A stretch of DNA of 62,102 nucleotides, filler included, from Sluysia triapertura (Eukaryota), in assembly GCA_046118255.1 (NCBI GenBank). It is 5 parts of 5 records of this genome, joined end to end, with 100 filler letters (N's around TTAATTAATTAA, not from the genome) between each part and the next. Parts side by side here need not be neighbours in the genome. Positions count along the whole stretch, not along the records: positions 47,654 to 62,102 come from JBJNIA010258737.1; 4 more parts are not named here. One strand, 5' to 3'. A program made the position numbers and the translations under genes. The notes under the pieces were generated by a model. The model did not search any database and was not told where the DNA came from. It saw nothing but the letters and a program-made list of their open reading frames with translations. Shown here piece by piece: positions 59,489 to 60,740 of the stretch. Each line of letters opens with the position of its first letter. The stretch's first letter is position 1.

Positions 59489-60740
59489 ATGGCACTTATA
59501 AACATTTGTTTTATTCGCCCTAATGACATGCATTTACCCACAAAATTGGATACCTGATATTTCATTACGATCACATGAAATATCCTTATACGCAAATCAT
59601 CACACGGATCTGTCATTGAAAATATATATTTCGCGGGATTATTTCAATTTCACAACCTACAATATATCTAATTCAAAGATCCGACCTAATCGTAGATACA
59701 ATATACGCATAATTAATCTAATGCCAATTTACAAACAAGATCAGCTAACTGCTCAGAATTTTATGTTTACCCTTACAAATGAATAACCATGTTTGGATGA
59801 AACTATTAAAAGAATCATGAATCATTTACAAATTTCAACTACATGCGACTCTGTGAAAATATATTTGGCTATTATACCATTTTTAGCCATCGTAAGATGC
59901 CCGAATGATAAAACAAAAGTAATCCGACCAAATCAACCTGTTGTTTGTAAACAATTATCCCCGGATACCACTTACCAACTACCCGTGTGGGTACCTATAT
60001 TTATGGAACGTCGAAGCTTCAGATTTGGTCCCGAACATTACAGGAATTACGTAAAAGGCGACTATGATTTCATAAATGAAGTAACAATTGATTCCTATGA
60101 AGATAATGAATTTCACCTAGAAGTAAATAATACGAATAATAATCTAACCGCCTCTCTAACAACTACAATACAGAAACATCAACACTTTGGCACTCATATA
60201 ACCACACTGAAATAATAAATTCATCAATAAGAAATCATATGAGGTTAACCCATTTAGAAAAGGAATCAACATGAACCTATTCTATCCAGTTGATAAAACT
60301 CCTGGTTGCAACAAAAATAATAGAATTCAGATGGACTGTAATCTCTATTATAATTTCAATTTTTCGCTGGTCGAAACCCAAAAAAGTTTATGTAAGACGG
60401 AAGAAAAATCTAACCATATCTAATCCAATGCCGTTATTAACGTTAGGAAACCCTATAATCGACAAACTCTATGTACGGCAGAACATGAAGATCAATGGAA
60501 TACCGATACGTGCACTTCTGGATACTGCTACCCCGTTACCATACAACACTTCGCATTATTATAATTGCACTAATTGCGATTTATTCGACTGACTTGGTTA
60601 GTTAGTCGATTGCATAGGTTGTGAAGTACCCGTAATTGGGATAATTGCGAATGAAGTCGATATCCTGGACCGAAGAATTATAGTCACATTCGTAGTCATT
60701 AGGAATTTTATTATTAGATTAGATACTATAAGAGCATTAA
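59489..60740 (+). pseudogene. Accessory ORF-B: signal peptide, FN3-like repeats, TM, retropepsin
   Basis: MALINICFI/ALMTCIYP. Motifs SKIRPNRRYNIRI, KQLSPDTTYQL and LTHLEKEST*TYSIQL. Then WTVISIIISIF followed by RWSKPKKVYVRRKK, MKINGIPIRALLDTA, and later VTFVVIRNFIIRLD. Confidence 0.55.

Follow-up and report, generated by a model that had tools for sequence, protein, structure and literature searches.

The window analysed here is the whole stretch of 62,102 nucleotides, an AT-rich animal DNA (GC 19–33%) with numerous transposon relics. The 3' part of a high-copy Gypsy element is present from ~57800, where a frameshifted integrase is followed by module A, module B, a RING ORF, a purine tract with TG, and an AT-rich probable LTR. 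Module B comprises, in order, a signal peptide, two FN3-like domains, a stalk, a transmembrane helix, a basic cluster and a retropepsin. Relatives were sought with the integrase. A search with the integrase core generated 4 proteins among 27 candidates at 50–53% identity (P0005–P0008), plus a longer cluster member, P0009. A metagenome scan generated 58 loci, the closest of which by integrase identity were L001 (52%) and L002 (45%). Signal peptides were called from hydropathy and by eye rather than with a dedicated predictor. The features of the element are as follows.

57834..58897, plus strand: Gypsy integrase remnant (zinc-binding, core and C-terminal part), frameshifted; 50–53% identity to P0005–P0008 and 52% to L001.
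58899..59450, plus strand: module A, with the continued integrase tail, an internal signal peptide (~58965–59015), a Cys-rich ectodomain, a helix (~59334–59384) and a basic, Pro-rich tail; read from hydropathy, the tail motif resembling the post-integrase motif of the relatives.
59487..59531, plus strand: internal signal peptide assigned to module B (probable), sharing the module A frame, with a stop at 59499; by eye, similar to the hydrophobic stretches led by Arg/Lys-Trp in L001, P0007 and P0008.
59535..59786, plus strand: FN3-like domain 1, assigned by homology, with a stop at 59784; hhalign 17.6 against the clade profile, alignment collinear.
59787..60086, plus strand: helical linker and FN3-like domain 2, assigned by homology; hhalign 24.0, shared C-x-x-L-x-P-x-x-x-Y-type motif.
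60087..60298, plus strand: Thr/Asn-rich stalk with N-glycosylation sequons; one frameshift within 60143–60212 and a stop at 60272.
60299..60406, plus strand: weak transmembrane helix (~60299–60364), then a basic cluster; from hydropathy and the third-position bias of copy differences.
60479..60769, plus strand: retropepsin domain in the helix frame, from a profile match; catalytic motif non-canonical, next codons diverged, stops at 60590 and 60599.
61023..61393, plus strand: RING-finger ORF with a frameshifted tail; Pfam zf-RING_2 (E 1.3e-5), 31% identical homologue at 10435–10977 on the minus strand.
61455..61463, plus strand: polypurine tract.
61465..62000, plus strand: probable 3' LTR, beginning TG at 61465, 3' limit not fixed; very AT-rich, with the top summed contig depth (30,000–48,000), which strong AT-richness may inflate.

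The first-pass annotation had placed a gene between an integrase and a PPT/LTR, and this position was borne out. The integrase lies upstream (57921–58897, the sole match in this element copy using tblastn with the whole polyproteins of the relatives), and the purine tract and TG lie downstream. The same search found no gag, protease, RT or RNase H upstream of the integrase. The copy is therefore 5'-truncated, near 57800, and contig depth falls to flank level upstream of the integrase remnant. No second LTR lies within the window to pair with the probable 3' LTR. Summed contig depth, which is not the same as copy number, was ~40–60 in the upstream flank and hundreds to 39,000 over most internal parts, with dips to single-copy level. 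It indicates a much-repeated family from which the present copy has diverged. Module A alone has three premature stops.

The integrase is of the Gypsy type. It is 50–53% identical to integrases of PR-RT-RH-IN polyproteins and clusters with those in a tree, where the starred set that holds the window integrase also includes 5 long-branch loci and is hence weak. A Ginger DNA transposon was set aside because a PPT is present and the relatives bear RT, and a Gmr1-type order was set aside because there is no RT downstream of the integrase.

The RING ORF is probably a separate 3' accessory gene. No RING homologue was found in the 58 metagenome loci; in its place, L001 and L002 have exonuclease ORFs after the polyprotein (10617–12107, Pfam RNase_T, and 5011–6528, by eye, respectively). 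The homologous RING ORF at 10435–10977 on the minus strand of the window is similar to the element RING through its Pro/basic tail, and is followed by a long ORF (9622–10362, minus) that Pfam did not match and whose N-terminus includes a hydrophobic stretch. Together the two ORFs may represent the 3' region of a sister family that has diverged, truncated by an assembly gap.

Polyproteins of the intact relatives

The closest integrase relatives are intact single-ORF polyproteins. Six distinct relatives were counted, P0005 being the C-terminal part of P0009, and their domains were read with Pfam and hydropathy. P0009 (3735 aa) has Gag, zinc knuckles, a signal, a class III fusogen, a helix, two proteases, RT, RH, IN, a signal, two FN3-like domains and a helix. 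L001 (at least 3426 aa, 5'-open) has a fusogen, a helix, two proteases, a signal, an FN3-like domain, a helix and a third protease, then RT, RH, IN, a signal, two FN3-like domains and a helix, with its exonuclease in a separate ORF. P0008 consists of a signal, an FN3-like domain, a helix, a protease, RT, RH, IN, a signal, two FN3-like domains and a helix; P0007 begins inside a protease and ends as P0008 does. P0006 combines two proteases with a single FN3-like domain, the latter located after the integrase. L002 continues past the integrase with a second protease, a signal, a Cys-rich part and a helix.

The PR-RT-RH-IN order was met in the relatives, which retain the normal protease before RT, so the window protease was correctly described as an extra one. 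Two or three proteases are present in 4/6 relatives. An FN3-like module follows the integrase in 5/6, with at most two FN3-like domains per module, and FN3-like-TM-protease is in frame before RT in 2/6 (P0008 and L001). A protease follows the integrase in 1/6 (L002), and the exact window order, FN3-TM-protease after the integrase, occurs in 0/6. The class III fusogen was found in two relatives, between gag and pol in P0009 and in L001, where the gag part is absent. A membrane-anchored retropepsin behind an FN3-type ectodomain is thus a real design of the clade, in frame in P0008 and L001 and with an ectodomain that folds as FN3 (see below). The FN3-like-TM-retropepsin module is a real, constrained part of a Gypsy clade with multi-protease, predicted multi-pass polyproteins.

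The position of the window gene had suggested an env. This assignment is not supported, since module B reads as a C-terminal extension of the pol polyprotein and the fusogen of the clade is a class III glycoprotein upstream of pol. Rather than standing as a separate env gene, module B probably forms the tail end of the pol polyprotein and carries an internal signal peptide. No fusion-protein family was found in Pfam for the module B sequences P0001 (the ectodomain) or P0002 (helix and protease), and the homologous module folds as FN3, so module B is not a fusogen.

We favor, at slightly better than even odds (about 0.55), a reading in which the locus preserves, in decayed form, the 3' end of a high-copy Gypsy element whose integrase frame ran through two membrane modules, the second consisting of a two-FN3 ectodomain, a helix and a protease activated by membrane clustering.

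Reading frames and the retropepsin

The frame from 58899 to 60212, common to module A and the module B ectodomain, has 6 stops in 438 codons versus 37 and 47 in the other two frames. Stalk, helix, basic cluster and protease all fall in a second frame, 60143 to 60916, interrupted by 3 stops over 258 codons. The two overlap at 60143–60212, hence one frameshift joins them. Ectodomain and protease had been read as one collinear ORF. They are out of frame in the window copy but in frame in the intact relatives, from which a fusion of ectodomain and helix in the window family is inferred. The signal-peptide-like start was likewise correct in part; the hydrophobic stretch is present, but the ATG at 59489 is in another frame and the stretch continues the frame of module A. 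The stops at 59451 and 59499 may mark genuine gene ends. No indels near 59500 were found among the copy differences listed, a missing row being weak evidence.

Differences between copies were used to examine constraint. The best-supported 40 of 106 were taken, of which 38 lie in module B and 2, in the RING ORF, were excluded. Within this set third codon positions account for 17/23 differences in the helix-protease frame (p 8e-5), 9/15 in the ectodomain frame (p 0.03) and 26/38 in both frames pooled (p 1e-5). By part, among the differences listed, the values are 3/4 for the module B signal peptide, 7/10 for the stalk and helix and 5/5 for the protease. This third-position bias argues that module B was coding and constrained in the active family, and the claim that helix and retropepsin share one frame stands. 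Between 59300 and 61120, 49/106 copy differences are C>T or G>A, and CpG observed/expected in the window is ~1.

Contig joints were examined for the order of parts. Those at 59961 to 60312, 60050 to 60232, 60395 to 60600 and 60707 to 61015 are among the 15 of 24 joints listed, the intervening sequence not being known. Among the joints listed, the order ectodomain-helix-protease-RING is kept in other single-copy contigs, which argues against a nested element.

The hydrophobic helix and basic cluster claimed for the locus are both present, but the helix is only moderately hydrophobic. Its best 11-residue mean is 2.39 and its 19-residue mean 1.72, below the cut-off (17-residue mean 1.9) that the helices of the relatives pass. 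Using the helix plus protease as query, 0/719 candidates were confirmed as relatives, and 2 PDB matches were dismissed as chance.

The window protease (P0002 residues 69–147) scored 19.1 bits against a profile of 10 natural proteases from the integrase relatives. None of 1000 shuffles reached this score (maximum 7.2), and the reversed sequence scored -0.2. BLAST aligned it collinearly with the proteases of the relatives over 88–106 residues. By profile match it is a single-lobe aspartic protease (retropepsin, clan AA, family A2-like), as originally proposed, and it was not detected by Pfam, a PDB search or a word-based search. Two further relics were noted in the window: a second retropepsin (19866–20124, minus), scoring 28 bits against the clade profile, and at 4824–4996 (plus) a small match to the RT-RNase H region of the relatives.

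The catalytic motif of the present decayed copy is non-canonical and the codons after it fit poorly. Contigs over this spot amount to only about two copies, so the non-canonical motif cannot be extended to the whole family. In a protease tree, which was not used for origin, the window protease lies on a long branch among the clade proteases (88/90, unstarred). Five extra proteases of P0006, P0009, L001 and L002 group together (96/99, starred), separately from the proteases next to RT. This hints at an old accessory-protease subfamily, a grouping that long branches may cause.

These features bear on whether the protease worked at all. The pre-pol FN3-TM-protease unit of the relatives may have been copied behind the integrase by recombination; its protease would then be a dead or structural passenger, and its ectodomain would serve at the surface in attachment or in modulating the host. 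The first protease of the intact P0009 also has a non-canonical motif, the extra proteases of the relatives are long-branched, 5/6 relatives end in FN3-like-TM with no protease behind, and module shuffling is frequent in the clade. On the other hand, the canonical motif is kept in 4/5 extra proteases of the relatives. The third-position placement of 5/5 protease differences among those listed also opposes a dead domain, though the number is small and a structural passenger could be constrained too. We regard a vestigial protease as unlikely while granting it real weight.

The FN3-like ectodomain

The post-integrase module of L001 was folded with AF2 from a 5-row alignment, in which the window ectodomain is one row. 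The model (pLDDT 84.4, pTM 0.68) has two beta sandwiches linked by a helix. Foldseek against the PDB placed tandem FN3 proteins on top, with a best E of 5.5e-7 and 166 matches at E <= 0.001. The top matches were FN3 fragments of fibronectin, DCC, neogenin, LAR, tenascin and Tie2, at 6–14% identity. TM-scores for the two-domain model were low (0.23–0.48) because the domain arrangement differs. Matches among viral structures were likewise FN3 proteins, and the P0008 module matched fn3 clusters in the Atlas at 0.87–0.90, ranked as leads. The FN3 fold is thus predicted for the ectodomain of an intact relative and is extended to the window by weak homology.

This extension draws on ~20% identity to the ectodomains of the relatives, collinearity, a shared motif and profile scores. 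Against the clade profile, 4/1000, 2/1000 and 1/100 shuffles scored as high as the window ectodomain in separate tests, while in a pairwise test 84/500 did, which is not significant. By hhalign, 0/60 shuffles scored as high for each domain, with boundaries picked after the alignment was viewed and matches that span just 15–18 columns. The C-x-x-L-x-P-x-x-x-Y-type motif of domain 2 is common to P0005–P0009 and L001. Pfam found no fn3 in the window or in L001, and a single-sequence model of the window ectodomain was unusable (pLDDT 33). Judged from its homologs, the window ectodomain is quite probably FN3. Three FN3 motifs had been proposed. Two FN3-like domains are assigned here; what was presumably the third motif (near 60225, a guess) falls in the third frame, so that two shifts would be required to include it.

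When the ectodomain itself was the query, 0/307 candidates were confirmed, and the sole match among 1.84 billion sequences was rejected as a chance likeness to a repeated beta-helix protein. In viral contigs, 0/61 stretches were confirmed. Among the 58 metagenome loci the FN3-like profile matched L001 alone, itself part of the profile. Module A was rejected as FN3, as 35/60 shuffles scored as high and the Atlas gave no usable match.

The WSXWS motif is the hallmark of class I cytokine receptors and is absent from P0001. The ectodomain had been called cytokine-receptor-like, which holds for the fold but not for this motif. Module B could still have acted at the surface as a receptor in its own right: binding of a host ligand or a neighboring cell by the FN3 domains would dimerize it and direct the activated cytoplasmic protease at host or element targets. 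Its topology resembles single-pass FN3 receptors, the fold matches include domains of Tie2, LAR, DCC/neogenin and the insulin receptor, and the protease sits at the C-terminus, with no downstream part of its own to free. The next gene encodes a RING protein, and host-regulatory domains are borne by Burro elements (PMC6431247). The lack of WSXWS speaks against a ligand-gated receptor, 6–14% identity to FN3 receptors is likeness at the fold level alone, and in P0008 and L001 the unit runs directly into RT, which indicates a role in assembly. We consider such a receptor improbable.

A chance juxtaposition, in which the protease opens another element (nested or in tandem) that has lost its pol, or the ectodomain is non-coding, would fit the frameshift between ectodomain and helix, the unequal summed depth of the parts and the fact that none of the contigs listed spans the whole stretch, but it is very improbable given the stop depletion and third-position bias, the joints in other copies that connect the parts in order (protease to RING included) and the in-frame FN3-TM-protease of intact relatives.

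A proposed multi-pass polyprotein with anchored proteases

Under the favored reading, of an integrase frame running on through two membrane modules, the element would make one multi-pass polyprotein. Alternating signal peptides and stop-transfer helices would thread it through the ER membrane several times. Host signal peptidase would then cut at the internal signal peptides to leave type I membrane proteins, FN3-FN3-TM-protease among them. Flavivirus and bunyavirus polyproteins, which are threaded in multiple passes and cut by signal peptidase, provide the analogy; they share the internal signal peptides and differ in belonging to RNA viruses. Cleavage by signal peptidase ahead of the fusogen would separate Gag and Pol, leaving Pol in need of another route into particles. 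In P0009, L001 and P0008 a protease lies where Pol joins the membrane anchor (the fusogen or an FN3-TM unit) behind which Pol may stay tethered. Retropepsins are active only as dimers, so crowding of the anchors at the budding site would trigger processing. Crowded anchors, or tandem protease domains, could in this way lead to processing of Pol, Gag and glycoprotein tails at that site. In the window family the FN3-TM-protease unit ends the polyprotein, and the protease would act in trans.

The FN3 ectodomain may be a clustering or cell-attachment partner of the class III fusogen. An attachment role beside a gB-type fusogen is a guess, prompted by two-protein entry systems. More broadly, and with somewhat less than even confidence, we suggest an undescribed invertebrate retrovirus-like lineage that would make enveloped particles from one flavivirus-like multi-pass polyprotein. 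Signal peptidase would free two kinds of protein bearing an inner retropepsin, the class III fusogen and the FN3 attachment proteins, and Pol would be packaged and activated via membrane anchors, not Gag-Pol fusion. The FN3-TM-protease would be a receptor-like protease switched by clustering or cell contact.

Gag-Pol is the usual route for packaging and activating the protease in retroelements. A polyprotein such as those of the intact relatives, in which membrane anchors precede two or three proteases, points to another route of packaging and maturation. FN3 is a candidate attachment partner for the gB-type fusogens of invertebrate errantiviruses, whose transmission mode is described as largely unknown (PMC13524379). 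A natural FN3-TM-retropepsin is predicted to be a simple dimerization-switched protease, and these ideas can be tested with P0008, P0009 and L001, which are intact natural sequences.

Ty3/gypsy errantiviruses of GAG-ENV-POL order with an HSV/gB-type env are described from flatworms, nematodes and bryozoans (PMC13524379). P0009 and L001 resemble these in having a class III (Monjiviricetes) fusogen in frame before pol, and in one block the L001 glycoprotein matches Schmidtea errantivirus_2 by eye at 21/37 residues (supplement of PMC13524379). They differ in that the text and 7 supplements of PMC13524379, as far as available, do not mention fibronectin or FN3, which figures and long cells could hide, and 'protease' occurs once in them, in a standard scheme. 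The window copy lacks its 5' half, and its own env is unseen.

NERV elements of nematodes (Sacco et al. 2022) are said to have a continuous ORF and are not known to carry FN3 or extra protease modules. They share an env before pol (cited in PMC13524379). The planarian giant Gypsy Burro/GYPSM1 is similar in reaching thousands of copies and in its huge polyprotein, where env sits in frame after gag and before pol; it also has accessory domains, with a RING-type zinc-finger motif among the extras listed (PMC6431247). The other extras are MATH, BIR, ankyrin, BCL2-like, SUMO-like and dUTPase-like, and no FN3, membrane-anchored or multiple proteases are described (PMC6431247). Burro exceeds 30 kb, and none of its extras (MATH, BIR, BCL2-like, ankyrin) was found in P0009 by Pfam. 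Rotifer LTR elements have a non-env ORF3 after pol (DEDDy exonuclease, small TM proteins) that resembles env in appearance only, in separate ORFs and with no FN3-TM-protease unit in the available part of PMC5408684; L001 is like them in its exonuclease ORF after the polyprotein. ASPRV1 (PMC11402058) is a retropepsin made as a self-processing precursor, but from a host gene. Single-pass FN3 receptors have the FN3 fold outside the membrane and are also host genes.

We know of no FN3 receptor, ASPRV1-type or multi-pass viral system that joins FN3, helix and retropepsin inside a retroelement. The word fibronectin is absent from the available parts of PMC5408684, PMC13238120, PMC8532177 and PMC11410931. 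No description of the FN3-TM-retropepsin design in retroelements was found in the literature searched, a mention in Grohme 2018, Sacco 2022 or Repbase being possible. What appears new here is the FN3-TM-retropepsin modules; GAG-ENV-POL Gypsy elements with a gB-type env were already known.

Other features were noted elsewhere in the window. Two related NUDIX hydrolase ORFs (3184–3804 and 6412–6924, minus) lie ~3.1 kb apart. Two related CCCH zinc-finger pieces lie at 32766–33164 and 52207–52590 (plus), one of them adjoined by a Cys/Met PLP-enzyme fragment (33583–33909, minus). Pfam identified a DDE_1 (pogo/Tigger-like) transposase relic at 40761–41368 (minus). A relic at ~54300–56700 (plus), seen by eye, is presumably piggyBac-like, and a twin 32-nt repeat lies at 55973–56052.
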